DNA from: Candidatus Methanoperedens sp.
GTDB lineage: Archaea; Halobacteriota; Methanosarcinia; Methanosarcinales; Methanoperedenaceae
Direction: 5' to 3'
Length of the DNA stretch: 32,000 nt
NCBI GenBank assembly: GCA_041494705.1
Contig: JBGQBI010000004.1
Span: 296,471-328,470 of the forward strand
Below are positions 523 through 26,176 of the stretch, piece after piece. Numbering within the stretch: position 1 is the first letter of the stretch; every line of letters starts with the position of its first letter. The notes below the pieces were generated by a model. The model had not been told where the DNA came from. It did not search any database and saw only the letters and a program-made list of their open reading frames with translations. The translations under genes and the position numbers were made by a program.

Positions 523-1029
523 TTAAATCAGCGCAGCAGTTATTCCCTGCACGCCTGACTGTATGATAACCGCTGTGGTGATTATTACACCAGCCATTTC
601 CAGCGCTACAGCCACGTTTCCTTTCTTGAGTTCTTCGAACTCCTCGATGCCCTTTGTCAGTTTATCGAGTATGTTCAATGCAAGATATATCGATGCGATT
701 GCAAGCACGATTCCGAGTATTAACTGGAGTAATCCCATTCCGATTGCTAACAAGCCGCCTGCGGACAGGATGCCACCCGCTGATGCCTGGGCTGCTTTAA
801 TGCCGCTGGATATTCCTGCAACGCCCGACTGCACCACGATACCTATCGCAAAAAATACCGAAGCAACAATAATGCCTATGGCAGTGTTGCCTTTTGCGAG
901 TTCCTTTTGTTCATCGATTCCTTTAGTTATCCTGCCAAATACTGAAAAGCCGATATATAGTGCAACGACTGCAAGTATAATGGCGATAACTAATTGTATA
1001 ATCCCTACAACTGCATTTATTGGGTCCAT
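523..1029 (-). CDS. Membrane protein with two DUF350-like repeats
   Basis: 168 aa with an internal duplication: two ~80-aa halves each carry ...(R/K)(I/L)TKGI(D/E)E..EL.KGN.A(I/V).. flanked by TM helices. GAGGTG SD lies upstream of the ATG at 1029. The DUF350 assignment is from memory. Confidence 0.7.
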   Translation of the reverse strand: MDPINAVVGIIQLVIAIILAVVALYIGFSVFGRITKGIDEQKELAKGNTAIGIIVASVFFAIGIVVQSGVAGISSGIKAAQASAGGILSAGGLLAIGMGLLQLILGIVLAIASIYLALNILDKLTKGIEEFEELKKGNVAVALEMAGVIITTAVIIQSGVQGITAALI

Positions 1030-1103
1030 AATTCACCTCACGCTTTAAGCGTTATCCTGTATAATGGCAATAGGGTCATATAAAATTATTGTGATACATA
1101 CCT

Positions 1104-1250
1104 TCATTCAAGAAGTTTCAGGGCTTTATTCGGGCAAACTATAATGCAGCGCATACATTGCGTGCATCTATCGTAGTCTATTCTTACAATGCCATCGATG
1201 CGCAAAAGAGCCCTCGCGTTGCACACGCTGTCGCACCTGCCGCATTTCAT
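1104..1250 (-). CDS. Small ferredoxin-like protein (4Fe-4S motifs); the 5' end may be frameshifted
   Basis: Below the ORF-track size cut-off. Minus-strand frame reads (IGC)MKCGRCDSVCNARALLRIDGIVRIDYDRCTQCMRCIIVCPNKALKLLE*. The second motif is a full CxxCxxCxxxCP. The first Cys of motif 1 lies upstream of the only in-frame ATG (1250). See finding. Confidence 0.45.
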   Translation of the reverse strand: MKCGRCDSVCNARALLRIDGIVRIDYDRCTQCMRCIIVCPNKALKLLE

Positions 1251-4910: not shown

Positions 4911-5909
4911 TTATTTTATTTCCATTCCTTTAACAAAGATCCCCTCATCCACAATCTCCCCAACAATTTTCCCCCCCATCATCTTTGAAGCCTCCTCTGC
5001 TTCGCTTTGCGGTACTACCACTACGAAACCCATTCCCATATTGAATGTCTTGTACATCTCAACATCTTCCACATCCCCTTCCCCCTGGAGGAACCTGAAT
5101 ACGGGCTGCGGCGGAAGCGGGTCGGAAATATCAAACCCGAGTTTTGTGATGCGGTGAAGTTTCATAAGCCCACTGCCGGTTATGTGCGCCAGCCCGTGAA
5201 TATCGAATTTTTGTGCCGCATCCAGGATTTCCATGTAAATCCTTGTAGGACTCAATAGCTCATCGCCGATAGTGGTATTTTTATTATACGGGAAAGCGTC
5301 TTGGTAAGAGTAGCCAGAGTCTTTTATAATCCTGCGGACAAGGGAATAACCATTACTGTGCACCCCGTTTGAGGGAAGCCCGATTATGGCATCTCCGATT
5401 TCGATTTTCTCACCTGTAATAATGCTGTCTTTCTTCACCATCCCAAGACATGTGCCCGCGAGGTCAAAACCATTTATGATATCCGGAAGAGTCGCAGTTT
5501 CCCCTCCTACTATGGTCATTCTTGAAATCTCTGCGCCTTTTGCAAGCCCCTCCCCGATCTGCTTCATGATTTCATTATTGGGTTCCTGGATGGCGATATA
5601 ATCCACGAATGCAAGAGGCTCGATGCCCATTGCCAGCAGGTCATTCACGTTCATGGCGATGCAGTCAATACCCACAGTATTCCATCTCTTCATCTCGTTT
5701 GCGATGAGGACTTTTGAACCCACCCCATCTGTGGTAAGCGCAAGAGCATACTCCCCGAAATCTATCAGACCTGCATAATGACCCACGTCTGTCAGGGGCG
5801 CTCCCAGTCCCTTTCGTTTATAAACAAGTTGTTTTGCAAGGGCTGCTATTGCACTGTTTTCCCTTTCAATATCAACGCCAGCCTGCGAATATGTTAAAGC
5901 CATATCCAA
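4911..5909 (-). CDS. purM: Phosphoribosylformylglycinamidine cyclo-ligase (AIR synthetase)
   Basis: 332 aa. YSQAGVDIE, TTDGVGSKV, GGETA and FNMGMGFVVVV are typical PurM blocks. Confidence 0.9.
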   Translation of the reverse strand: MDMALTYSQAGVDIERENSAIAALAKQLVYKRKGLGAPLTDVGHYAGLIDFGEYALALTTDGVGSKVLIANEMKRWNTVGIDCIAMNVNDLLAMGIEPLAFVDYIAIQEPNNEIMKQIGEGLAKGAEISRMTIVGGETATLPDIINGFDLAGTCLGMVKKDSIITGEKIEIGDAIIGLPSNGVHSNGYSLVRRIIKDSGYSYQDAFPYNKNTTIGDELLSPTRIYMEILDAAQKFDIHGLAHITGSGLMKLHRITKLGFDISDPLPPQPVFRFLQGEGDVEDVEMYKTFNMGMGFVVVVPQSEAEEASKMMGGKIVGEIVDEGIFVKGMEIK

Positions 5910-6071
5910 CTCAATAAAAGTTATTGCATAAAGATTTTATGATTGGAAGAGCAGGCTTGATAGGGTGTGGGAGTTAAAAAAGCAATGCCTGCTCACAATC
6001 ATAATGATGAAAAAGCATAATAAATGTTTCGGTCTGTTTAATATTTTCCGCCAAAAACCTAACAGAAATAT

Positions 6072-6731
6072 TTACAGATAACTCAGGGCATCTTCAATCC
6101 GGCTTATCTCAGGCCCGGTAGTATCTTCACCCACGACGTATCCTTTGCCATTGGCAAGAATCCCCGAACCCACAAGCGGTGAACCAAAATTAACCGTCCC
6201 GATCTCCACCGGGAGATTGAACAGTTCTTCGATTACTCCAATTTCCGAAGGGGTTGATTTTGGATGCACAAGCACTCCTTTGTTCGTTGCAATGCCAGCC
6301 ATACCCACTGTTTTTAACCCTCCGATAGTACCGCGTTTAACATCAACATCAAGAGCTTTCTTAATTATCCCGACTGATTTATCGCTGAGGTCGGGATGCA
6401 CGATAGCAGCGGTATCGTTGGCAAGTATGAGATTTCCTGCGGCATTTAATTCACCCGTCAATTTTGCGGCTTTCGTGTGTTTCCTGAGTACACGCAATTC
6501 TTTATCATATATGAGACCTGCTACCATGACACTTCGGCTGTTTCCCCGCAGCAGCGAGCCGACAATTGAGCTTCCGCCTACGGAAGAACTGACAGCTATT
6601 ACACCAAGTGATTCTTCTAAATCTTTGATGGTCTCAGGCGATGTATTGCCTGAAACAAAAACAAGCTCATCAGTACAGGCAGCAAAAACACCAAGTACGG
6701 GGCTCCCTGAAATATTTAACTTACGTTTCAA
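6072..6731 (-). CDS. eif6: Translation initiation factor 6 (aIF6)
   Basis: 219 aa pentein-repeat protein (GSPVLGVFA..., NAAGNLILAND..AIVHPDLS, GIATNKGVLVHP). Sits in the conserved aIF6-L31e-L39e cluster. Confidence 0.9.
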   Translation of the reverse strand: MKRKLNISGSPVLGVFAACTDELVFVSGNTSPETIKDLEESLGVIAVSSSVGGSSIVGSLLRGNSRSVMVAGLIYDKELRVLRKHTKAAKLTGELNAAGNLILANDTAAIVHPDLSDKSVGIIKKALDVDVKRGTIGGLKTVGMAGIATNKGVLVHPKSTPSEIGVIEELFNLPVEIGTVNFGSPLVGSGILANGKGYVVGEDTTGPEISRIEDALSYL

Positions 6732-6757
6732 ATCTGTCCCTTTTTATCCAAAAAAAG

Positions 6758-7021
6758 TTATTCCTGGGCGAGTTCAGCCTGCACGCCGCCCGCCTCGAAT
6801 TTTACAGCCCTTACCCTTACTTTCAATGGCGGTTTCATGGAGCCTCTCTCCCAGAGTTTCTCGTTAATAGTCTTGTCAATCTTAACTTCTTTCAAATCTG
6901 TCTTCAGATGCTTTGCAAGATATGCCCTTACTTTTCTTGCTGCGCTTTCTGCTCTCTTCCAGCGCGGAACTTTCCTTGCATCTGAAAGTGGAATCGTATA
7001 TATTCTTTCAATGTCTGCCAT
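6758..7021 (-). CDS. rpl31e: 50S ribosomal protein L31e
   Basis: [12 protein letters not shown]...[17 protein letters not shown] at 7021 is preceded by GGTGAT SD. The longer track start at 7039 would overlap L39e. Confidence 0.9.
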
Positions 7022-7031
7022 ATTAATCACC

Positions 7032-7184
7032 TTAAACATCCAGCGTGCTGCGTCTCCAGTTGCGTCTCTTTGGATGGGTCATTACATTTCTTTGAGTTTT
7101 AACGATAACCCATGCAGGAACGCGCTGGTTCTGGTTCTGCGCTTTTGCCAGCCGTTTCTTCTTTCCTTTTGTCTTTTGCGTCAT
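7032..7184 (-). CDS. rpl39e: 50S ribosomal protein L39e
   Basis: [30 protein letters not shown]...RRNWRRS. ATG at 7184 is preceded by GGTGA SD. Confidence 0.9.
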
Positions 7185-7309
7185 AAAAAATTCACCGGAT
7201 AATCTTAAATTGGGATTATCCATAAGGTATTGATTTGTTGATAAAGCTTTTGGCGATAATCTATTTATACCCTCCTGCCATCTAAAATCCTCGCGTGGTG
7301 AATATACTC

Positions 7310-8584
7310 ATGACAAGAACATCAAAGCTTTCAGGTTTTTATAAATTAAGCCCGAAGGACAGGCTAAAAATAGTATCCGAATTTTCAGGTCTTACAGATG
7401 AAGAGGCTTCGTGCATCAGCGCTACCGGCGCTCTCTCGCTTGATGCGGCAGATCGCATGGTAGAGAACCTCATAGGGGTCATGGAAGTACCCATGGGCGT
7501 GGCTGTCAATTTCCTGATTAACGGCAGGGATTATCTTATCCCCATGGCAATAGAAGAACCTTCGGTGATAGCTGCTGCCAGCAACTCTGCCAAGATGGCA
7601 AGGGAAGGTGGGGGCTTTACCACGAGCAGTACCGGCCCTGTGATGATAGGACAGATACAGGCTGTGGGGATAGCCGACCCGAACGGCGCCAGGATGAACA
7701 TCCTTGAGAAAAAAGACGAGATTATAAGGCGCGCAAACGATGTTGACCCTGTACTTGTCAAGTTCGGAGGCGGGGCAAAGGATGTGGAGGTCAGGGTGAT
7801 AGACACGCCGGAGGGCAAAATGGTCATCACTCATCTGATTGTGGATTGCAGGGACGCCATGGGTGCCAATGCTGTAAATACCATGGCGGAAACGGTGGCT
7901 CCTTATATCGAGGAGCTGACTGGTGGAAGAGTGTATCTTCGAATCATCTCGAATTTTGCGGACAAGCGTATCATGAGGGCAAAAGCAGTATTCACAAAGG
8001 AAGCTATCGGAGGCGAGGAGGTCGTGGACGGTATCCTGGCAGCCTATCACTTTGCTGCGGGAGACCCTTACCGGGCGGCAACGCACAACAAAGGCATAAT
8101 GAACGGGGTAAGCGCGGCTGTGCTTGCCACGGGCAACGACACCAGGGCAATAGAGGCTGGTGCGCACGTCTATGCAGCCCGAAGCGGGATATACAGGCCG
8201 CTTTCGTGCTATGAGAAAAATGCAAACGGAGACCTCATAGCCACAATTGAAATGCCAATGGCAGTAGGTCTTGTGGGCGGCGCCACGAAGACAAACCCGA
8301 TTGCACGATCGGCAGTAAAGATTCTCGGGGTCAAGACTGCGACAGAAATGGGCGAGGTATTTGCAGCGCTGGGACTGGCGCAGAATTTCGCCGCACTTCG
8401 TGCATTAGCCACTGAAGGAATCCAGAGAGGGCACATGGGGCTTCACTCAAGGAACGTTGCGATACAGGCAGGCGCTACCGGCGAGATGGCGGATAAGATT
8501 GCCGAAATCATGGTCAAAGAAAGGAAAGTCAGGGCAGACAGGGCAAAGGAACTGCTTGACGAGATGCTGCAGAAAAAGAAATAG
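7310..8584 (+). CDS. hmgA: Hydroxymethylglutaryl-CoA reductase, class II-type
   Basis: [31 protein letters not shown] and [12 protein letters not shown] blocks, with length ~425 aa. First ATG at 7310; the track start at 7295 is GTG. Confidence 0.9.
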
Positions 8585-8654
8585 TATCCATCCTTATCAG
8601 GTTAATTATTTAGCACATGAATACTAATATTTATGATAAGGCGAGGGATACATT

Positions 8655-9059
8655 TTGAGATTTGAAAATAAATTATTAAGAGATATAATGACAAGAGGGG
8701 TTGTAACTGTGCCCATGGATGCTACGGCCAAACAAATAGCCACCATGCTGAGCAAGCAGGGGCTTTCCGGGGTGGCTGTAATCAGCCCGGAGGGCGGAGC
8801 AATGGGGGTAATCTCGGACATGGATATTCTTAAAGTGATAGGAAAGGATGACTGGGAAAACCTGCCTGCAGAATCAATAATGACCTCGCATCTTGAAACG
8901 GTCAAGCCCACTTCAACACTGGGCGAGGCTGCAAGAATAATGAGAGAAAAGCATATTCATAGACTGCTTGTTTTCTCAGAAAAGGGCGTTGGGGCGTCGC
9001 AGAGACCTATCGGGATACTGAGCGCGAGCGATATTGTAAGGGAAGCGGCAAGGGAATAA
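8655..9059 (+). CDS. CBS domain pair protein
   Basis: Two CBS repeats (IMTRGVVTV...GVISDMDILK and IMTSHLETV...GILSASDIV). TTG start at 8655 is preceded by GAGGG. An alternative ATG is at 8688. Confidence 0.8.
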   Translation: MRFENKLLRDIMTRGVVTVPMDATAKQIATMLSKQGLSGVAVISPEGGAMGVISDMDILKVIGKDDWENLPAESIMTSHLETVKPTSTLGEAARIMREKHIHRLLVFSEKGVGASQRPIGILSASDIVREAARE

Positions 9060-18782: not shown

Positions 18783-18977
18783 TTACTCATCAAAGATAAA
18801 AACCTCCTCTATTTTGGATTTCAATACCTTTGATATATCGTATGCAAGTTTCAACGAAGGATTATATTTCCCCTTTTCTAAAAAAAGGATGGTTTCTCTT
18901 CTCACACCTACCTTTTTAGCAAGCTCTTCCTGGGTTAAATCGTATCTTGCCCGAAGCTCCTTGATTCTGGTTTTCAT
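18783..18977 (-). CDS. XRE-family (Cro/CI-type) HTH transcriptional regulator, 64 aa
   Basis: [48 protein letters not shown] is the canonical short XRE HTH. Its ATG overlaps the stop of the preceding membrane paralog (TAATG). Confidence 0.85.
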
Positions 18978-19405
18978 TATACTTCGCCTTTTTTGTCAAT
19001 ATAATGCCCAATAATTATCCAGGAAAACATGCTGGCGACCGAAATCACATATACCGTGCTTGTATATTCCAGCCTTAAATTTAAGATGCTGTTAGCAAGG
19101 CCGGAAACGATCAAGACCGCAATAAGCAGCAAAAATGCAAATGATCCAGCCTTCTCACCGACACGCATAGATCGTTCGTCAGCTATTGTATTTCCTTCTG
19201 ATTCTGCCTTGAACCTTTTGATGTTGAAATATGCGCCTATCAAAAGAGTCAAGCCAAAAATGATGAAAATCAAGGGCTCATAATACGGTTTTCCTTCATA
19301 AATAGTTTGAAGGAACCAAAAAGATGCAAATGCGAGCATAAATACGCTTGTGGCCAGGTTAATCTTACTCATCAACAGTAGTTTTTTATTTTCGTTAAGT
19401 TTCAT
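18977..19405 (-). CDS. Array paralog 1 (last in transcription order): 4-TM DER-loop membrane protein (DUF2178-like)
   Basis: 142 aa, four hydrophobic helices, loop [18 protein letters not shown]-terminus YIDKKGEV. Confidence 0.7.
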
Positions 19406-19803
19406 TCGATATCGCCTTTTTTGTAGAAATAAAATGCAAATAACGCATATAACACAAACATGCCTAAAGGCAAAAAAAACCCCACCTCAATAAAATTTAT
19501 CTCAGGCGGCGGAAATCCAATGTTGAGCATACCGAAAAGAGACAGAGAAACGAAAGTCAACCAAAAAACATAATATGCCGCCTTTTCTGAGCCTCTTTGT
19601 CCTCGTTCATCGACAAGAATAACTGTTGGTTTTGGTTTTGTTGATTGATATATCGTTCTTACCAGCATAGTGGCCCAAACAGCAGTAAAGACTGACAGAT
19701 GCTGATTTGATGTATTTTGAAGCCAACGCGCAAAAAAAATTAACACCAAAAAAATAAAAAAACCCGCTTCAAACAAAATATCTTTATCTTTCCTGAATTT
19801 CAT
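19402..19803 (-). CDS. Array paralog 2: 4-TM DER-loop membrane protein (DUF2178-like)
   Basis: 133 aa. N-terminus MKFRKDKDI, loop VDERGQRGSEKAAYYVF, C-terminus [12 protein letters not shown] overlaps at both ends. Confidence 0.7.
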   Translation of the reverse strand: MKFRKDKDILFEAGFFIFLVLIFFARWLQNTSNQHLSVFTAVWATMLVRTIYQSTKPKPTVILVDERGQRGSEKAAYYVFWLTFVSLSLFGMLNIGFPPPEINFIEVGFFLPLGMFVLYALFAFYFYKKGDIE

Positions 19804-20195
19804 TTAATATCACCTTTTTTATTATAAAACCACAGAAATAATATGAATGAATATATTCCCATAAACAAAATCACAACACTTGCATCCTTGTATATTATGG
19901 TTCCAGGAATTACAATTTCAAATATGTCCAGAATTATAATTGTCTCCATGACAATCCAAAAAGCAGCATGTCCTGCTTTATCCCTATTTTTATTAGTCCT
20001 CTCATCAGGCATAAAATATTCTTTTGGCTTTGATGCAACATACACACCCATTGAGGTCAGTATCAGCCCGCCAAGAATAAGCCCTCCGCCAAGAAATGGC
20101 GGATTTACATATTTGGATAGAACTGCGCCTACAAGCGCCATGCCTATGCTTGCCGCAAAAAACTTCATTATTTCTTTGTCTGTTCTGAATTTCAT
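19800..20195 (-). CDS. Array paralog 3: 4-TM DER-loop membrane protein (DUF2178-like)
   Basis: 131 aa. N-terminus MKFRTDKEI, loop PDERTNKNRDKAGHAAF, C-terminus FYNKKGDIK. ATGA overlaps at both ends. Confidence 0.7.
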   Translation of the reverse strand: MKFRTDKEIMKFFAASIGMALVGAVLSKYVNPPFLGGGLILGGLILTSMGVYVASKPKEYFMPDERTNKNRDKAGHAAFWIVMETIIILDIFEIVIPGTIIYKDASVVILFMGIYSFILFLWFYNKKGDIK

Positions 20196-20605
20196 TCAGC
20201 ATCACCTTTTTTGTTGTAGTACCACCTAAACACAATGAAAATCCATAGTCCGATAATCCATATATCCCGAACCACTTGCTCTACTTCTATCGACGGTGTT
20301 ATTGACGGGGAGATTTTCAGCAATCGCAGGAGCGAGATTATTGCTGCAATCAGCAGGGTTGCAATAAACGCAGAATATCCGGCTTTTTCACGGACTCTGG
20401 TGGAGCGTTCGTCTTCTATTAAATCTTCTTTAGATTTAGTTGCTGCAATAAGACCGGCAGTTAATCCTATCAGACCACCCATAATTAAAAGAAATCCGAT
20501 AGTGCTAAATGGTTTGATAAATAAAAAAATGATAATTCCAGCCAGAATTGCGCCCAGACTGATCCCAATAAATTTTATGATGTCCTTATCTTTCCTGAAT
20601 CTCAT
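20192..20605 (-). CDS. Array paralog 4: 4-TM DER-loop membrane protein (DUF2178-like)
   Basis: 137 aa. N-terminus MRFRKDKDI, loop EDERSTRVREKAGYSAF, C-terminus WYYNKKGDAE. Closest to paralog 6 (shared SPS(I/L)TPS and WYYNKKGD). Confidence 0.7.
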   Translation of the reverse strand: MRFRKDKDIIKFIGISLGAILAGIIIFLFIKPFSTIGFLLIMGGLIGLTAGLIAATKSKEDLIEDERSTRVREKAGYSAFIATLLIAAIISLLRLLKISPSITPSIEVEQVVRDIWIIGLWIFIVFRWYYNKKGDAE

Positions 20606-20631
20606 TTTATAGTCACCCTTATCTATCGGTT

Positions 20632-21042
20632 TTATTCTCCTTTTTTAACAAAATAGTAAACCAGTATGCCCCACGAATATATTCCGATATGTGCGACAAT
20701 TATCGGCGTCCATGGGGAATCCTTGGCTGCCAGCAGGAAATTATTTGTCCCACCCAAAATGTATGCTCCACTCAATAGAAACAAACATCCCATAAGAATC
20801 AGAAATGCGTATAAGCTCGCTTTTTCACCAGCTCTTCTGGTTCTTTCATCGCCCAAAACTCCTGTTCTTGGCCTGGACAAAAGAAGCGAGGCAGTTATGA
20901 TGATGTCCAACTGCCAAATAATGAAGATAATATTGTTTGGGCTAAACCTTCGTCCTAAAATTATTTGGATTATTGTACTTGCCAATAACACAAACCCGAG
21001 AACGAATACCAAATACAGCCATTTTCTGTTGAATTTGTTCAT
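20632..21042 (-). CDS. Array paralog 5: 4-TM DER-loop membrane protein (DUF2178-like)
   Basis: 136 aa. Loop GDERTRRAGEKASLYAF, C-terminus YFVKKGE. A 26-nt gap with GGGTGAC SD separates it from the next gene. Confidence 0.7.
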   Translation of the reverse strand: MNKFNRKWLYLVFVLGFVLLASTIIQIILGRRFSPNNIIFIIWQLDIIITASLLLSRPRTGVLGDERTRRAGEKASLYAFLILMGCLFLLSGAYILGGTNNFLLAAKDSPWTPIIVAHIGIYSWGILVYYFVKKGE

Positions 21043-21452
21043 TTGATATCACCTTTTTTATTGTAGTACCACTTAAGTATCAAGAAAGAGTACAGCCCTA
21101 TGACCCAAATTAGAAGAGCTCCACCCAAGAAATCGTTGGAAGGAGTTAACGAGGGGGACAACTTCACAATATTAAGGAACATAATTACTGCCGCCACAGA
21201 CACCATTATTTCATACGCGTAATACCCTGCTTTTTCCTTAATTCTTCCAGACCGCTCATCTTCCATAAAGTAATCTTTGGGTTTTGAAGCTATACGTAAA
21301 CCTATTATAAATCCCATCAGTCCGCTAGAAATTGAAATAACCCCAATAATCGTAATCTGGGGAATGAACCATATTATAAATGTTCCAGCCAAAATTGCAG
21401 CCAAACAGAATCCAAGAAGTTTTGAAATATCTTTGTCTTTTCTAAATTTCAT
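21039..21452 (-). CDS. Array paralog 6: 4-TM DER-loop membrane protein (DUF2178-like)
   Basis: 137 aa. N-terminus MKFRKDKDI, loop EDERSGRIKEKAGYYAY, C-terminus WYYNKKGDIK. ATGA overlaps at both ends. Confidence 0.7.
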   Translation of the reverse strand: MKFRKDKDISKLLGFCLAAILAGTFIIWFIPQITIIGVISISSGLMGFIIGLRIASKPKDYFMEDERSGRIKEKAGYYAYEIMVSVAAVIMFLNIVKLSPSLTPSNDFLGGALLIWVIGLYSFLILKWYYNKKGDIK

Positions 21453-21838
21453 TCCACGTCACCTTTCCTTTTGAAGAACCACTGAAAAACTCCCGCAGCC
21501 ACGGTCGCCACAGCCAATGTTAATGAAAGAGCTTGTGAAGCAGGCATCTTAACCAGATTATAAAGATCTAACCATAGCAATAAACTCACGAATATAAATG
21601 TAACCAGCCATGAATAAGCCAGTGCAAAAGCCCCAAGCTTTGTTGTTCTCTCATCACTCTCAGGTCCCTCTCCGAATTTTAGATGCCGAAGCGCGCTTCC
21701 TATAATGAGAATCAAACCGGACAATGTAAATAAACTTGCAATTAAACTGAAAACGCCTTTCCAGATAATCTCTATCGCTATACCCAGAAGCAGCAGCACA
21801 AGCCCAATCGCCAGACGGGATTTATATTCGTTCTTCAT
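21449..21838 (-). CDS. Array paralog 7: divergent 4-TM DER-loop membrane protein
   Basis: 129 aa. Loop SDERTTKLGAFALAYSW (EKA lost), C-terminus FFKRKGDVE. Confidence 0.65.
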   Translation of the reverse strand: MKNEYKSRLAIGLVLLLLGIAIEIIWKGVFSLIASLFTLSGLILIIGSALRHLKFGEGPESDERTTKLGAFALAYSWLVTFIFVSLLLWLDLYNLVKMPASQALSLTLAVATVAAGVFQWFFKRKGDVE

Positions 21839-21847
21839 ATACTTACT

Positions 21848-22234
21848 CTAAAACCCGATTTCCTTCTTTATCTTCGTATAATACAAGTGGAATGCTATTT
21901 TTGAAACTATTATGACCGCAATCAAAATCCCGAGTACTTCGAACACATCAAAAAGCATTGGGTAAAAATGCAACACTATCGTCAGTATCCCGATTGTTGA
22001 GATTGCTGCAACCAGTGTATACTCCGACGCTATGGAGGAAATTCTTTTTGTCATTTCATCTTTTTTCATTTCACCTTTGTATATTGATCTACGTAAAAAA
22101 TAATTTAAAAATAGTGCTATTCCAGCAGCGGCCATCATACTTACCCCAACAGTATCGCCATAAAATGATAAGATAACGGCAGCAATTCCAAAAATCGAAG
22201 CCAGTACCAGCGTTAGCATGTCAGATTTTTTCAT
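21848..22234 (-). CDS. Array paralog 8 (first in transcription order): most divergent 4-TM member
   Basis: ATG at 22234 is preceded by GGAGGT (22246..22241); the track start at 22249 is TTG. Loop is degenerate (KKDEMTKRISSIASEYTL) and the C-terminus YYTKIKKEIGF lacks KKGD. Confidence 0.6.
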   Translation of the reverse strand: MKKSDMLTLVLASIFGIAAVILSFYGDTVGVSMMAAAGIALFLNYFLRRSIYKGEMKKDEMTKRISSIASEYTLVAAISTIGILTIVLHFYPMLFDVFEVLGILIAVIIVSKIAFHLYYTKIKKEIGF

Positions 22235-22248
22235 ATCATCAACCTCCA

Positions 22249-22296
22249 AATGTTGTATATTTACAACATTATGTTATGTATTTAACACTATTTAAA
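22249..22296 (-). promoter_or_regulatory. Putative promoter (TATA box TTTAAATA) plus a perfect 9-4-9 palindromic operator upstream of the membrane-protein array
   Basis: Minus-strand TTTAAATA is plus 22289..22296. AATGTTGTA-TATT-TACAACATT lies at 22249..22270, about 20-40 nt downstream of the TATA box (the expected TSS zone) and directly upstream of the SD. Confidence 0.5.
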
Positions 22297-22471: not shown

Positions 22472-24466
22472 ATGAATATTAACCTGAATCTGGCTATGAA
22501 TCAAAGACAAAAACCAGCACAATCGACTGCATGGGAACAGGATAAAAATTACATTTTCTGGTGCCCCAAGTGCAACATCCCATTGCTTGAGGAAGAGTGC
22601 GGCATATGCCATGAAAAAAGTGCTCAAATCGAGCTTTCCCAGCCCGGAGACGTGCGGTTTTCCTCGCAGCATGAAAGAGAAATAATCAACAACTTGATGC
22701 TAGAGCTTTTTGGCAGCAATCCTCTTGCAGGAAAACTCATTCTTTTGAATAAAATTCCGGGCGAGGATAAGACAGACGAGATTCTCGTGGATGGAATTCG
22801 TTTCGGCGTGTTGAGATTCGATATGAAGGAACTCGATTTCAAGCTCGACCTCATGGTTGAAGGGGCTTCTGCGCTCATAAATTCAGGCATTTTAAGTAAA
22901 CTTGTTAAAATATCCTCAGGCGGGCGGCATCTGAGCGGCAAAAACATTGACGGGAGCGAAGTCATTGAGTGTTCGGAGGATATCAGGAAAGGGGATACCG
23001 TTCTTGTAATTGCCAGGAATTTAAGCGGGTTTGGCATATCATATCGCGATAGCGGCGATTTGAAACACCCGGGGCAGGCGTTAAAGGTCAAAAAAATCGA
23101 ATCGCAACAAGTGAGCTTTATTTCAAGGAATCCATCCATGGATGAAATTATCCGCGCCAATGCGCCTCACATGAAAAGGCTTGTCAGGGATGCCGTAAAT
23201 ACTATCAGGGGAATCGCAAACCAGAAAGAATTCAGGGATTCGCCTGTCTATGTTTCTTTTTCAGGCGGCAAGGACAGCCTTACAACGCTTGACCTCACGC
23301 GGAACGCCGTGAAAAAACCAATAAAGGTATTTTTTGCAAACACTGGAATCGAATTTCCGGAAACGGTTGAGTTTGTAAGAAGATTCTGCAAAGAAAACAG
23401 TATCGAGCTTATAGAAGTGGAGGCAAAGGATGCTTTCTTTGAGAATCTTCCGAGTTTCGGACCTCCTGCCAAGGATTTCAGGTGGTGCTGCAAGGTGTGC
23501 AAACTTGCGCCCATCAATACCGTCATAGAAGAATGCACGCGCGGCGGGGGGAAGTGTTTGACGATTGACGGGAAAAGGAAATACGAGTCCTTTACACGCT
23601 CGCGGATAGCCCCGAAAGAGGAGAACCCGTTCATTCCGGGGCAGGTGAGCGTGTTCCCGATACGCGACTGGCGCGCCATCGAAGTGTGGCTCTATATTTA
23701 TTACAGGAAACTTGAATTCAATCCATTGTACGAGCTTGGTTTTGAACGAGTGGGATGCTGGCTCTGCCCTGCTGAACTCAGCGCAGAATATTACCGGGTC
23801 AGGGAATTGCATCCTGAATTGTTTGGGCGCTGGAATGATTACCTTTTGAATTGGGCAAAAGAGCACGGAGTTACAGATGAATTCATCGGGCATGGATTCT
23901 GGCGCTGGAAAACATTGCCGCCCAAGATGATTCGCCTTGCTGAAGAGCTGAAAATCAGTACGGCATTAAAGGGCAAAAAAGAAGAGTTCGGCATCGTGGT
24001 GACAGGCGGGGTTTCGCCCTGCAAGACGGGCAGCTATACGATTGAAGGGAAAGTTTCAGGGCTTACACTTGATGAAGCCCAGAATATCGCCAACATCCTC
24101 GGTGATAATGTATTCTCAGAAGACCTCGGGGTGCTTCTGGTTAAAACAAAAAGCTCAAGCGTCAAGATATTTTCATCAGGGCATATCTCGGTGAATGCGC
24201 CGGATGAAAAAGAGGCGTTGTCGCTTTTTGAGAATGCGGCAAAGCAATTAATCCGGGTGAAGAAGTGCACGAAATGCGGCGTGTGTTTGAAAGTGTGTCC
24301 TGTGGATGCTATCGTTATCGAACCGCAGCTTAAAATAAGCAAAGAGTGCACACGATGCGGGAAATGTACGGAATCATGCGTTGTTGTGAAGTATTTTGAC
24401 AGGCTTTTGCCACAATTCAGCCAGAGAAATACCGTGCAATCACCGGCGTCACATAAGATTCAATAA
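22472..24466 (+). CDS. PAPS-reductase/PP-loop ATP-pyrophosphatase family protein with an N-terminal zinc ribbon and C-terminal 2x[4Fe-4S] ferredoxin domain
   Basis: CPKCNIPLLEEECGIC (Zn ribbon), VSFSGGKDS (PP-loop), CTKCGVCLKVCP and CTRCGKCTESC (ferredoxin motifs). The true start may be a downstream Met. The last ~9 codons run into repeat copy A. Confidence 0.75.
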   Translation: MNINLNLAMNQRQKPAQSTAWEQDKNYIFWCPKCNIPLLEEECGICHEKSAQIELSQPGDVRFSSQHEREIINNLMLELFGSNPLAGKLILLNKIPGEDKTDEILVDGIRFGVLRFDMKELDFKLDLMVEGASALINSGILSKLVKISSGGRHLSGKNIDGSEVIECSEDIRKGDTVLVIARNLSGFGISYRDSGDLKHPGQALKVKKIESQQVSFISRNPSMDEIIRANAPHMKRLVRDAVNTIRGIANQKEFRDSPVYVSFSGGKDSLTTLDLTRNAVKKPIKVFFANTGIEFPETVEFVRRFCKENSIELIEVEAKDAFFENLPSFGPPAKDFRWCCKVCKLAPINTVIEECTRGGGKCLTIDGKRKYESFTRSRIAPKEENPFIPGQVSVFPIRDWRAIEVWLYIYYRKLEFNPLYELGFERVGCWLCPAELSAEYYRVRELHPELFGRWNDYLLNWAKEHGVTDEFIGHGFWRWKTLPPKMIRLAEELKISTALKGKKEEFGIVVTGGVSPCKTGSYTIEGKVSGLTLDEAQNIANILGDNVFSEDLGVLLVKTKSSSVKIFSSGHISVNAPDEKEALSLFENAAKQLIRVKKCTKCGVCLKVCPVDAIVIEPQLKISKECTRCGKCTESCVVVKYFDRLLPQFSQRNTVQSPASHKIQ

Positions 24467-24482
24467 CAGCGGCCACAAAAAG
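24439..24482. repeat. Direct repeat copy A (44 bp, perfect)
   Basis: atcaccggcgtcacataagattcaataacagcggccacaaaaag is identical to 25614..25657. Similarity continues leftward, with 12/16 matches over 24423..24438 versus 25598..25613. Confidence 0.95.
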
Positions 24483-24568
24483 CTGGGGCGCAATAATATC
24501 GTATCGGATTGTTCTAAAATTAACCGATACCGATATATACTCTTGTGTAATATCGGATATATTAAATT

Positions 24569-25495
24569 ATGTCCGATACCGATACATCATCAATCCAGGA
24601 AAAGCTTCTTTCACGCATAAATGAAAAAATACACAGGCTTAACTCGCTTCGCCCTCTTCCAGCCGATGCCGTAAAAAAGTTACATGAAGAAATGAGGCTG
24701 CTGCATACGTATCACTCAAATGCAATAGAAGGGAATACCCTGACGCTTCCCGAGACAAAACTTGTTCTTGAAGAGGGTATTACCATAGGCGGGAAATCAC
24801 TGCGCGAGCACCTTGAAGCAACAAACAATGCCAGGGCATTCGATTTAATAGAGGATATTGCAAAGAAGAAAAAGACAATAGACCATGCTGTAATTCAGCA
24901 AATTCATGAAGTTATCACGTCAGGCATTCTCGAAGGCGCAGGCAAATACCGCACCAAGAACGTCAGGATAACGGGTGCAGCAAAAACTCCGCCAGACTGG
25001 TCAAAAGTTACCAAGCTGATGGATGAGCTTATTGAAAAAATCACTCAATGTAAAAGACATCCTGTTGATATTGCTGCCTTCCTGCATCACAGATTCGTTG
25101 AGATACATCCATTCATAGATGGAAATGGCAGGGCGTCCCGCCTTCTCACCAACCTGTATTTGATTGCCCAGGGTTATCCGCCAATAGTTCTCAAAATAGA
25201 GGACAGAGGAAAATATTACAGGTTCCTGAGAGCAGCGGATGCTGGAAACATTGTCCTGTTTGCCAATTTCATTGCAAAGGCTGTTGATGAGAGCCTGACG
25301 ATGTATCTTTCCATCTCTGGCGGGGTTGATGAACTGCTGCCCCTCAGAGAACTTGCTGGAAACACACCTTATTCCCAGGAATACCTGAGCCTGAGAGCAA
25401 GGCAGGGTGTTCTGGATGCGGTAAGAATAGGGAAAATATGGTATTCATCAAGAAATGCAATAGAACAATATCTATCTGAACACGGCAAACGATAG
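24569..25495 (+). CDS. Fic family protein (AMPylase-type) with an N-terminal inhibitory motif and C-terminal HTH-like domain
   Basis: Canonical HPFIDGNGRASR (HxFx[D/E]GNGRxxR). The upstream SNAIEGN fits the (S/T)xxxE(G/N) autoinhibitory helix. The C-terminal ~60 aa (LRELAGNTPYSQEYLSLRARQGVLDAVRIGKIWY) looks like a small DNA-binding domain. Confidence 0.85.
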   Translation: MSDTDTSSIQEKLLSRINEKIHRLNSLRPLPADAVKKLHEEMRLLHTYHSNAIEGNTLTLPETKLVLEEGITIGGKSLREHLEATNNARAFDLIEDIAKKKKTIDHAVIQQIHEVITSGILEGAGKYRTKNVRITGAAKTPPDWSKVTKLMDELIEKITQCKRHPVDIAAFLHHRFVEIHPFIDGNGRASRLLTNLYLIAQGYPPIVLKIEDRGKYYRFLRAADAGNIVLFANFIAKAVDESLTMYLSISGGVDELLPLRELAGNTPYSQEYLSLRARQGVLDAVRIGKIWYSSRNAIEQYLSEHGKR

Positions 25496-25591
25496 CGGTA
25501 TATCCCCTGTATAATTCGAGTTGTGCCCCAAATTTAAGCGCTAGGATTGTTATTCTGATTTCAGGCTGCCTATGATGAACGGGAACGCCTA

Positions 25592-26176
25592 TCACATAGA
25601 AAAATACAGCGCTATCACCGGCGTCACATAAGATTCAATAACAGCGGCCACAAAAAGAAGAGGAAGTATCCTCACCACATAAAACCACAGTCCCTGCTTA
25701 AATTCCTGTTTCAGATTCGTCCTTTCGCCTTTTAAAAACCGATACACCTCATACCCGAGCCGAAGCCCGATGGCGGCGCTAAGAAACACCATCGGCAATT
25801 CTATGATACCATGGGGAAGGACCGCTGCAAGCACAAAAAGAATCCCTTTTTCTGTTGAAAAAACCTCAGCAACCATTCCCAGGAATAATCCATTCACTGC
25901 TATAAGAAAAATCGGAACGAAACCAAGACCGATGCCAAGCACAAGAGCCAGCAGGCTGTTAATTGCATTGTTCTTGAAAATCGCGAGCATTCTTTCAAAA
26001 GGGTCAAGTTGTGTAATCCATCCGAACGTCTTCTTAAATAAATCAATATAGTATGTTGATTTTTCCGGGTTCGTTATTGATACCAATACGCCGATAATTA
26101 AGAAAAACGTGAAAATCACGGTGACTGCAAGAATATATTTCCTTAAAGAATACAGATATTCGGCATCTTTTTGCAT
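25592..26176 (-). CDS. SpoIIM-like (stage II sporulation protein M family/DUF95) membrane protein
   Basis: 194 aa polytopic protein with the PHGIIELP motif characteristic of this family. Confidence 0.7.
   Translation of the reverse strand: MQKDAEYLYSLRKYILAVTVIFTFFLIIGVLVSITNPEKSTYYIDLFKKTFGWITQLDPFERMLAIFKNNAINSLLALVLGIGLGFVPIFLIAVNGLFLGMVAEVFSTEKGILFVLAAVLPHGIIELPMVFLSAAIGLRLGYEVYRFLKGERTNLKQEFKQGLWFYVVRILPLLFVAAVIESYVTPVIALYFSM
25614..25657. repeat. Direct repeat copy B (44 bp, perfect), inside the 3' end of the SpoIIM-like gene
   Basis: Identical to 24439..24482. On the minus strand it encodes LFVAAVIESYVTPVI of the intact gene. Confidence 0.95.

Follow-up and report, generated by a model that had tools for sequence, protein, structure and literature searches.

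How does a single accessory gene come to stand between two core genes that overlap at their 3' ends, and what does the perfect direct repeat around it record? The question is raised by a stretch of 32,000 nucleotides (nt) from the archaeon Candidatus Methanoperedens sp. (assembly GCA_041494705.1, contig JBGQBI010000004.1, positions 296,471 to 328,470 of the forward strand), referred to below as the window. Here a gene encoding a Fic-domain protein of 308 amino acids (aa), Fic-308, is placed between a PAPS-reductase-like gene and a convergent gene of a SpoIIM-like membrane protein, and two exact copies of a 44-nt sequence enclose it. An earlier sequence-only reading of this locus interpreted the repeats as an attL/attR pair left by a site-specific recombinase. 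Comparison with related loci leads us to favour, with moderate confidence, a different reading, according to which the interval is a defence hotspot between core genes, the Fic cassette probably entered it by host recombination and the repeat would be the scar of this event.

The duplicated end of the SpoIIM-like gene

The 44-mer ATCACCGGCGTCACATAAGATTCAATAACAGCGGCCACAAAAAG occurs in two exact copies on the plus strand of the window (24439-24482 and 25614-25657, 0 mismatches), and no match was obtained in 100 dinucleotide-preserving shuffles even with up to 3 mismatches allowed. A repeat finder extended it to 60 nt with 93% identity (24423-24482 and 25598-25657, spacing 1175), while by eye, from the stop codon to the common inner edge, the copies designated A (24417-24482) and B (25592-25657) span 66 nt with 59 identical positions (89%). 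All seven mismatches fall into the outer 22 nt, which leaves the 44-nt core free of them; such a distribution would be expected after a crossover inside the core. On the minus strand copy B closes the intact SpoIIM-like open reading frame (ORF) with ...VTPVIALYFSM and a stop codon, and copy A reads ...VTPVIARYFSG followed by a stop codon as well. Fic-308 (24569-25495) is the sole ORF with a family match between the copies, so that the description of the locus as a Fic gene bracketed by a perfect duplication of the SpoIIM 3' end was correct. The same locus is present in identical form on two long contigs from independent assemblies (2.07 Mb, JGI, and 777 kb, NCBI), and diverged two-copy versions were found in two more assemblies (L010, 88% identity over 66 nt, and L015, 96% over 47 nt). 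Thus the 44-66-nt duplication is real, and the concern that it might be an artefact of assembly is removed. The edges of the insert show no discontinuity in GC content or skew in a composition scan, and no Rfam match was found in the region 24000-26000.

Relatives of the locus were sought among 185,579 species genomes with the SpoIIM protein as query, and mapping of synteny by tblastn then gave nine loci; all related loci belong to metagenome-assembled genomes (MAGs) of Candidatus Methanoperedens. True empty sites, in which the SpoIIM and PAPS-reductase genes are directly convergent with an overlap of ~50 nt, were registered in L009, L011, L013 and later in L053. Such sites were anticipated by the sequence-only reading, and with them the duplicated arrangement is certainly not common to all relatives. 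Beyond the 44-nt core the empty-site sequence (tgcg.ggtatttctctggctga + attg/actc.ggcaaaagcctgtcaaaatac...) coincides base for base with copy A and the left flank of the window, and copy A is, therefore, the displaced ancestral end of SpoIIM, left on the PAPS-reductase gene. The tail of copy B, agcgctgtatttttctatgtga, corresponds to the ...ALYFSM allele. This M tail and a T tail, which is one base apart (tatttttctaTgtga versus tatttttctaCgtga), are confined to loci in which SpoIIM and PAPS-reductase do not adjoin each other (L006-L008 and L054-L057), which identifies the copy B tail as a pre-existing allele from another haplotype of the locus; most probably it arrived together with the insert. 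The idea that the incoming DNA supplied a surrogate gene end agrees with both observations.

The novel junction is, accordingly, the inner edge of copy A. With a slash marking the switch, the window reads ...GGCCACAAAAAG/CTGGGGCGCAATAATATCG and the empty sites ...GGCCACAAAAAG/AAGAGGAAGTATCC, while the flank to the left of the Fic module in another context, L065, reads ...TTTACCAAAAAG/GAGAGGCATGAAATAATACCG. In the alignment of these junctions the donor-like L065 string is ...ACCAAAAAG/GAGAGGCA, the empty one ...CACAAAAAG/AAGAGGAA and that of the window ...CACAAAAAG/CTGGGGCG. The heptanucleotide CAAAAAG is common to the donor-like and recipient sequences exactly at the switch point, and 6 of the next 8 bases are also shared.

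It was supposed earlier that termination of the PAPS-reductase ORF inside copy A is a side effect of the insertion. This turned out to be wrong. The last 17 PAPS-reductase codons (QFSQRNTVQSPASHKIQ and the stop) are antisense to the last ~16 codons of SpoIIM, so that ~50 nt (24417-24466) are coding on both strands; the same is seen in L053 and L061, and in all five empty sites (these two, L009, L011 and L013) PAPS-reductase already stops ~50 nt inside the SpoIIM 3' end. Since the overlap is found even in a lineage with a SpoIIM identity of only 58% (L061), and the long PAPS-reductase tail running antisense through the SpoIIM end is present in distant homologues (P0149, P0166, P0172, P0193), it is ancestral, and the position of the stop codon was, therefore, not caused by the insertion. 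The commoner short tail, ...LLPGFRKRA and stop (TTC AGG AAG AGA GCA TAA), is codon-for-codon homologous to TTC AGC CAG AGA AAT ACC of the window, and its antisense strand keeps the SpoIIM-like ...TCC TGA. The long tail appears to stem from loss of the ancestral TAA (GCA TAA to AAT ACC).

A hotspot at the SpoIIM stop codon

At least five types of junction were registered at distances of up to ~25 nt from the stop codon of SpoIIM. The first is the empty overlap, and the second is Fic-308 with the 66-nt duplication (window, L010, L015). In the third (L012) Fic-308 adjoins an intact end of ancestral type four bases past its stop codon, without a surrogate tail and with ~65 nt less of the 3' flank. 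The fourth (L054-L057, L060) carries another Fic gene, of 442-445 aa, 12-20 nt past an end of the type ...YFST and without duplication; in these loci divergence of the PAPS-reductase tail sets in exactly at the stop codon of SpoIIM. In the fifth (L006-L008) the ...ALYFSM end is followed by unrelated genes of housekeeping appearance. The second Fic gene, Fic-445 (L055 8605-9933 and L057 1575-2912, both on the minus strand), combines Fic_N/DUF4172, Fic and a DeoR-like winged helix-turn-helix (wHTH) domain; its architecture is SoFic-like, and it is unrelated to Fic-308. Further cargo is represented by a helicase resembling Hhe/PDC-S37 beyond copy A in L015 (PADLOC) and by an S-adenosylmethionine (SAM) methyltransferase gene 290 nt downstream of PAPS-reductase in L059, which belongs to the same MAG as L010. 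Among defence models Fic-308 matched SoFic and PDC-S04 of PADLOC, and its L015 neighbour matched PDC-S37 and Hhe, while the methyltransferase looks metabolic.

The side composed of UPF0179, EgsA, DUF63 and SpoIIM is kept in 14 loci, and PAPS-reductase occupies the opposite side in L009, L011, L013, L053, L055, L061 and the window. Within a clade of 93-95% identity the Fic-308, empty and Fic-445 states are interleaved on the tree of flanking genes. No hallmark genes of mobile elements were found within the interval among the loci examined. Based on these data, the best-supported view of the locus is that of a hotspot flanked by core genes, with turnover of cargo between close relatives.

Several other rearrangements were noticed at this place. 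In L007 a gene for a Cas4/PD-(D/E)XK nuclease with four Cys residues (6689-7453) lies directly downstream of SpoIIM and is followed by TusA/DsrE-like genes, synteny being broken right after the SpoIIM stop. The pair L008/L014 was considered as a 15-kb integrated element, and this idea was rejected because the genes in the two fetched parts look like housekeeping ones (MoaA, ThiF/MoeB, UMP kinase); gene content was read on both sides of contig positions 11973-14974. We rather read it as a rearrangement with scrambled end fragments of SpoIIM and PAPS-reductase than as a mobile element. In MAGs of several assemblies contigs end within a few hundred bases of the locus (L010, L015, L054, L058, L059, L060), and the SpoIIM and PAPS-reductase sides of a single genome are often split over different contigs, which is consistent with strain-level heterogeneity or repeats there. 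In L010 the last 86 nt of the contig, beyond copy A (5976-6061), are by eye much more G+C-rich than their surroundings, and the stop codon of copy A is lost (tga to tgg); this end could be foreign DNA or a chimeric join.

Residues 8-247 of Fic-308 align to human FICD (PDB, E 9e-40). The inhibitory-helix motif SNAIEGN faces TVAIEGN of FICD, and the catalytic loop HPFIDGNGRASR fits the pattern HxFx(D/E)GNGRxxR; both the inhibitory (S/T)xxxE(G/N) and the catalytic motifs are invariant in 22 homologues. PADLOC scores are 8e-35 for PDC-S04 and 2.7e-32 for SoFic. However, Fic-308 is not a SoFic equivalog (34 bits with NCBIfam NF046030 against a cut-off of 550), and Pfam reveals the Fic domain only: for the C-terminal domain of ~55 aa, which by impression may be excisionase/HTH_17-like, neither Pfam (E<=1) nor PDB (E<=10) gave a match. 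An AlphaFold model was not used because its pLDDT was 42 and the alignment of 22 sequences too shallow. Comparison with five homologues gave dN/dS of 0.10-0.15, one off-frame value against L010 being disregarded. The family comprises more than 120 clusters at 75% identity or above, many of them on contigs of 1.0-1.5 kb, and, where an organism is named, nearly all hosts are Methanoperedens or Methanoperedenaceae. Fic-308 is most likely a self-inhibited Fic AMPylase that would act as a defence gene of toxin or abortive-infection type; SoFic itself is an established abortive-infection AMPylase (PMC12249575).

Upstream of the Fic gene there are two 37-nt repeats (24502-24538 and 24551-24587), the second of which overlaps the ATG start codon. 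Each contains the palindrome TATCGG...CCGATA(CCGATA), that is TATCGG...(A/C)CCGATACCGATA, and these motifs are invariant in nine Fic copies taken from different genomic contexts. Such conservation suggests a candidate operator, through which Fic-308 may regulate its own promoter.

The remaining genes of the window are of housekeeping type and encode a DnaG-like primase, RFC, HMG-CoA reductase, eIF6, an RPA-like protein, glycerol-1-phosphate dehydrogenase and KptA; on the right the Pfam-assigned neighbours are SpoIIM-like, DUF63, EgsA and UPF0179 (Table 1 lists the features of the interval itself). Directly upstream of the PAPS-reductase-like gene lies a tandem array of seven Pfam DUF2178 membrane-protein genes and one unannotated ORF of similar size (18783-22249; L001 2215-5681), which adjoins a small HTH_3 regulator gene and recurs, with variable copy content, in L058.

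Table 1. Features of the interval between the two core genes, in window coordinates
Feature	Position	Strand	Basis
PAPS-reductase-like / 4Fe-4S core gene, left flank of the hotspot	22472..24466	+	Pfam PAPS_reduct E 6.9e-41 and Fer4; NCBIfam PRK13795 equivalog, 961 bits against cut-off 745
Repeat copy A, displaced ancestral SpoIIM-like 3' end ('G-end', ...LFVAAVIESYVTPVIARYFSG and stop), detached from the gene body	24417..24482	-	Equals empty sites L009, L011, L013, L053
Perfect 44-nt core, copy A	24439..24482	.	Exact match
CAAAAAG, 7-nt microhomology at the novel junction of SpoIIM core and Fic cassette	24476..24482	+	Comparison with L065 flank
Fic upstream control region (putative), two 37-nt repeats	24483..24568	+	Repeats 24502-24538, 24551-24587
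Fic-308, probable FICD/HYPE-like class II Fic AMPylase, cargo	24569..25495	+	Pfam PF02661 E 1.7e-22; FICD alignment; PADLOC
3' flank that probably moved with Fic	25496..25591	+	Up to ~25557 common to other contexts; rest weakly like L062/L065 downstream flank by eye
Repeat copy B, present SpoIIM-like 3' end; 22-nt tail is the 'M-end' allele (...ALYFSM and stop)	25592..25657	-	M/T-type tail in L006-L008, L054-L057
SpoIIM-like membrane protein gene, right flank of the hotspot	25592..26176	-	Pfam SpoIIM E 8.5e-35; DUF63-EgsA-UPF0179 synteny kept in all relatives

Possible routes of entry

If the cassette entered by host recombination, the insert would be a single-gene segment of ~1.1 kb (Fic promoter, ORF and ~95 nt of 3' flank) placed into the ~50-nt overlap of the convergent SpoIIM-like and PAPS-reductase-like genes. 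We infer that the donor was a Methanoperedens strain already having Fic directly behind an M-type SpoIIM end, and the recipient a strain with the empty site. One crossover would have taken place in homologous SpoIIM sequence, and the other join may have been formed at the CAAAAAG microhomology 66 nt inside SpoIIM, as in homology-facilitated illegitimate recombination, or, equivalently, a circularised fragment may have entered by a single crossover within the 44-nt core. By either route the SpoIIM 3' end would be duplicated. Such products would survive and be kept because the duplication provides both overlapping genes with a complete end, and breakpoints would cluster in the zone of ~25 nt because both genes must stay functional. 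The perfect 44-nt repeat could then mediate a precise pop-out, or the insertion could spread to other empty sites by homologous recombination; the junction of a popped-out circle would read ...GAACGCCTA + copy B tail + core + CTGGGGCGCAATAATATCG.

The flanking genes are in fact mosaic: across EgsA-DUF63-SpoIIM the nearest relative of the window switches every few hundred nt. For instance, L006 and L008 are 98.7% identical to the window at 27061-26912 and only 81-82% identical at 26761-26612. With mosaicism so pervasive, no single clean recombination breakpoint could be picked out in the SpoIIM gene of the window. A similar picture is given by the SpoIIM homologue P0038, which is 65% identical overall and, by reading, nearly identical to the window clade in its last ~60 residues; it looks mosaic with a breakpoint near residue 134, where the SpoIIM fragment of L014 also starts.

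Several points weigh against entry by host recombination. The microhomology is based on a related flank (L065/L062) rather than on the true donor, and it was spotted post hoc. None of the loci examined had the expected donor haplotype, in which an M-type SpoIIM end would be separated by ~34 nt from Fic-308 and copy A would be absent. The recombinase search in the genome of the window covered ±10 kb of the 2.07-Mb contig, and one Fic-308 copy elsewhere (L018) lies next to a split, degenerate tyrosine-recombinase catalytic domain (676-1229, minus strand) between lox-like palindromes. Fic-308 has come into this interval of 70 nt at least two times, as the window type and as the L012 type, and this may be a hint of targeting. 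Finally, long repeats surround members of the Fic-308 family in several unrelated loci and none of 100 control genes. Purely opportunistic recombination does not predict this, and it remains the main unexplained observation.

The latter deserves a closer description. The Fic module, with homology from ~24492 to 25495-25557 of the window, occurs in at least six other genomic contexts. In L022 it is bracketed by repeats of 58 nt with 79% identity, in L062 (6685-6926 and 8167-8450) by 176 nt plus an element of ~65 nt, which makes ~245/285 nt per arm, and in L065 (362-428 and 1579-1646) by 67-nt repeats having the ~65-nt element in common with L062; these two contexts probably descend from one event. 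In L018 34-nt palindromes are found beside the split tyrosine-recombinase domain, while L019, L020 and L021 have no bracketing repeat. In L062 the module belongs to a small island that also encodes an N6/N4 methyltransferase, a PemK toxin-antitoxin pair and a HARE-HTH protein. The bracketing repeats are made of local, context-specific sequence and differ in sequence and length between contexts. In a flank-versus-flank repeat test covering 105 ORFs of at least 200 aa from the window and 19 loci, scores of 15 or more were obtained in five cases only: L062 (111), the methyltransferase of L014 (69.5), the window (50), L065 (21.5) and L018 (17.5). Since the other 100 genes scored 14 or less, bracketing is specific to this cargo and does not reflect the genome background; L022 scored 28 in a separate run. 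The L014 case (JBAQMZ010000017.1) is an 87-nt direct repeat (4981-5067 and 6032-6118, 92% identity, spacing 1051) around a single SAM-methyltransferase gene. In this repeat the genuine 3' end of PAPS-reductase is fused to SpoIIM codons ~134-142; the intact SpoIIM lies ~15 kb away, and scrambled end fragments surround the repeat. Two genomes of 97% identity, L021 and L022, were also compared around 7914-8952: both flanks of their Fic modules differ by indels, which lie at the ends of the module or no more than ~25 nt away from them (left, +1.5 kb; right, 389 nt as against 1264 unrelated nt), and L022 also contains a truncated leuC/hacA-like 5' fragment.

Based on this bracketing one can tentatively imagine Fic-308 as a mobile cassette free of recombinase, whose long local duplications (58 to ~285 nt) allow excision as a circle and re-insertion into homologous empty sites of other strains; its attachment site would then be whatever sequence was duplicated last. 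A related proposal, which we regard as doubtful, ascribes the duplications to the insertion itself: a cassette-specific process without a recombinase gene would duplicate tens to hundreds of target bases by repair of staggered breaks or template switching, or the cassette would be self-mobile via its repeats, as a circle with one copy that re-inserts by homology. That high flank scores are confined to Fic-308 (window, L062, L065, L018 and, separately, L022) and to the hotspot methyltransferase of L014 is in its favour, as is the direct contact of the inner edge of the left repeat with the Fic promoter in the window and in L062. The L014 repeat argues for duplication in situ, because it includes a rearrangement junction so idiosyncratic that a foreign element is hardly likely to have brought it. 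However, a simple target duplication does not predict that the two copies in the window differ in the outer tail only and that this tail is a pre-existing allele. Moreover, three Fic-308 contexts lack repeats, independent cases are few, L062 and L065 being probably one, and no candidate enzyme is known.

Integrase-mediated site-specific integration, proposed initially, is unlikely in our estimation, since the tests applied all spoke against a dedicated integrase in trans, and the assignment of the repeats to attL and attR is probably wrong. According to this scheme the 1175-bp segment is a satellite cassette or a remnant resembling a cis-mobilizable element, the attP of which mimics the SpoIIM 3' end and is served in trans by a tyrosine recombinase of the genome or of a helper element. 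The architecture is indeed classical: direct repeats cover the 3' end of the target gene, the ORF is regenerated (...ARYFSG and ...ALYFSM), and unoccupied sites exist in L009, L011, L013 and L053. The hotspot accepts multiple cargo, and bracketing by repeats is specific to the present cargo; in L065 the Fic-flanking element has an inner end similar to the inner 20 nt of the SpoIIM core (16/20 by eye). In L018 there are three lox-like palindromes (ATACTACAAT-N-ATTGTAGTAT; 1479-1507, 1562-1592 and 2639-2670) beside the split Phage_integrase domain, and two of them bracket the Fic module. However, these palindromes are absent from the window and from every other locus and were, therefore, rejected as a general cassette boundary, and the window repeat possesses neither secondary structure (z +0.5) nor palindromic or lox-like structure. 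In agreement with the sequence-only reading, ORF and domain scans revealed no integrase or transposase in the segment, nor in the scanned ORFs of the whole window, which also contains no tRNA; the fetched flanks of the other Fic loci with long repeats (L022, L062, L065) had no recombinase either. The core sequence was searched in viral contigs, while genome and metagenome collections were scanned with proteins. The 44-mer, a degenerate form of the core and the Fic protein gave no match in 2.9 million viral contigs, so that no attP-bearing one was seen, and plasmid and phage collections contained only bacterial Fic homologues of less than 48% identity. The viral contigs provided no att core shared with an independent element, and the loci at this site no identical junctions of independent insertions; other insertions at the stop codon of SpoIIM have junctions of their own and lack a duplication. 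Bracketing repeats that are wholly different between contexts and reach ~245-285 nt are also unlike one att site.

Other classes of mobile elements fit no better. A transposon, insertion sequence or miniature inverted-repeat transposable element is disfavoured by the lack of a transposase and by duplications of 58 to ~285 nt instead of a short fixed length. Terminal inverted repeats were considered on the basis of a 10-nt match (TGGGGCGCAA / TTGTGCCCCA) and rejected, since it is paired only in copies of the window type and its left end is not conserved elsewhere; the right motif looks like a conserved element of the 3' untranslated region. No conserved end motif of integron cassettes was found at the Fic module, palindromes being present in L018 only.

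It is quite improbable that the arrangement with the duplication is the old one, from which close relatives secondarily derived their empty sites by pop-out between the repeats. Precise deletion via the perfect 44-nt repeat would restore exactly the empty sequence observed, occupancy is patchy within the clade of 93-95% identity, and the divergence of Fic between the window, L010 and L015 (4-6%) is close to that of the flanking genes. However, the overlapping empty form is also present in the most divergent of the close relatives, L013, in the distant L061 and, judging from their tails, in P0149, P0166, P0172 and P0193; since both L013 and a distant lineage have it, the empty arrangement predates the insertion. 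This alternative alters the history of individual empty sites and not the nature of the feature. As to a chimeric join or collapsed repeat, its probability is negligible: MAG contigs end at the locus in L010, L015, L054 and L058-L060 and a k=31 Logan unitig is broken exactly at the repeat (L003, 1191 nt), but the structure is contained in the two long, independently assembled contigs and in diverged form in two more assemblies. The same Logan contig, bearing Fic only, was tried as an excised circle and rejected, because its length equals the 1131-nt inter-repeat segment plus 2x30, as in a k=31 unitig broken at the repeat.

Known systems and biological meaning

The hotspots cDHS1/2 of P. aeruginosa are intervals flanked by core genes, with variable, mostly defence cargo and no single class of mobile elements, where homologous recombination in the flanks is possible (PMC10250203). 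Likewise, Fic-308, Fic-445, a methyltransferase or an Hhe-like helicase is met between SpoIIM and PAPS-reductase. Unlike cDHS1/2, the locus is archaeal and very small (from none to few genes) and has no tRNA or tmRNA at its border; its flanking genes overlap by 50 nt, so that insertion must resolve the overlap, and the window variant does so with a duplication of 66 nt.

Cis-mobilizable elements (CIMEs) of Streptococcus are att-flanked islands without recombination genes, derived from integrative and conjugative elements whose cognate integrase is known and whose att site is constant. The locus shares with them a short insert, direct repeats including the 3' end of a host gene, a regenerated ORF and the absence of an integrase inside; it differs in that no cognate integrase or attP was found here and the repeats around the same cargo vary by locus. 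In homology-facilitated illegitimate recombination a homologous anchor is combined with a join at microhomology, and in a Campbell-type single crossover a circle is integrated, so that the insert comes to lie between duplicates of the anchor. Both mechanisms were described experimentally in naturally transformable bacteria; to our knowledge, nothing is known of them in Methanoperedens. The window resembles such products in the 7-nt microhomology at its novel junction and in its repeat tails from two haplotypes. With integron gene cassettes the Fic unit has in common its single gene, its size of ~1 kb, its many contexts and, in L018, a position between imperfect palindromes by a tyrosine recombinase, but it carries its own promoter and has no conserved attC-like ends, IntI or array. 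Fic-308 itself is similar to the class II AMPylases FICD/HYPE, to which its catalytic and inhibitory motifs align, and unlike SoFic it is devoid of the Fic_N/DUF4172 and wHTH architecture, which Fic-445 has.

No genetic system exists for Methanoperedens, an uncultured anaerobic methane oxidiser noted above all for giant Borg elements, and little is known of how its chromosome acquires and loses accessory genes. The locus described here is an archaeal hotspot flanked by core genes, resolved to the base pair in empty, occupied and rearranged alleles, and it suggests that host recombination and not an integrase moves the cargo. Insertion between overlapping convergent genes is seen here to be tolerated, the overlap being duplicated. 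We regard the feature as a hotspot for defence or accessory genes whose cargo is exchanged by recombination, and the Fic-specific bracketing by repeats is a lead worth following. If this bracketing is mechanistic and not incidental, junctions of circles and empty sites would provide ready assays by polymerase chain reaction or read mapping in existing enrichment cultures, and it would represent a new and simple route by which individual defence genes could be mobile while carrying no mobility gene.

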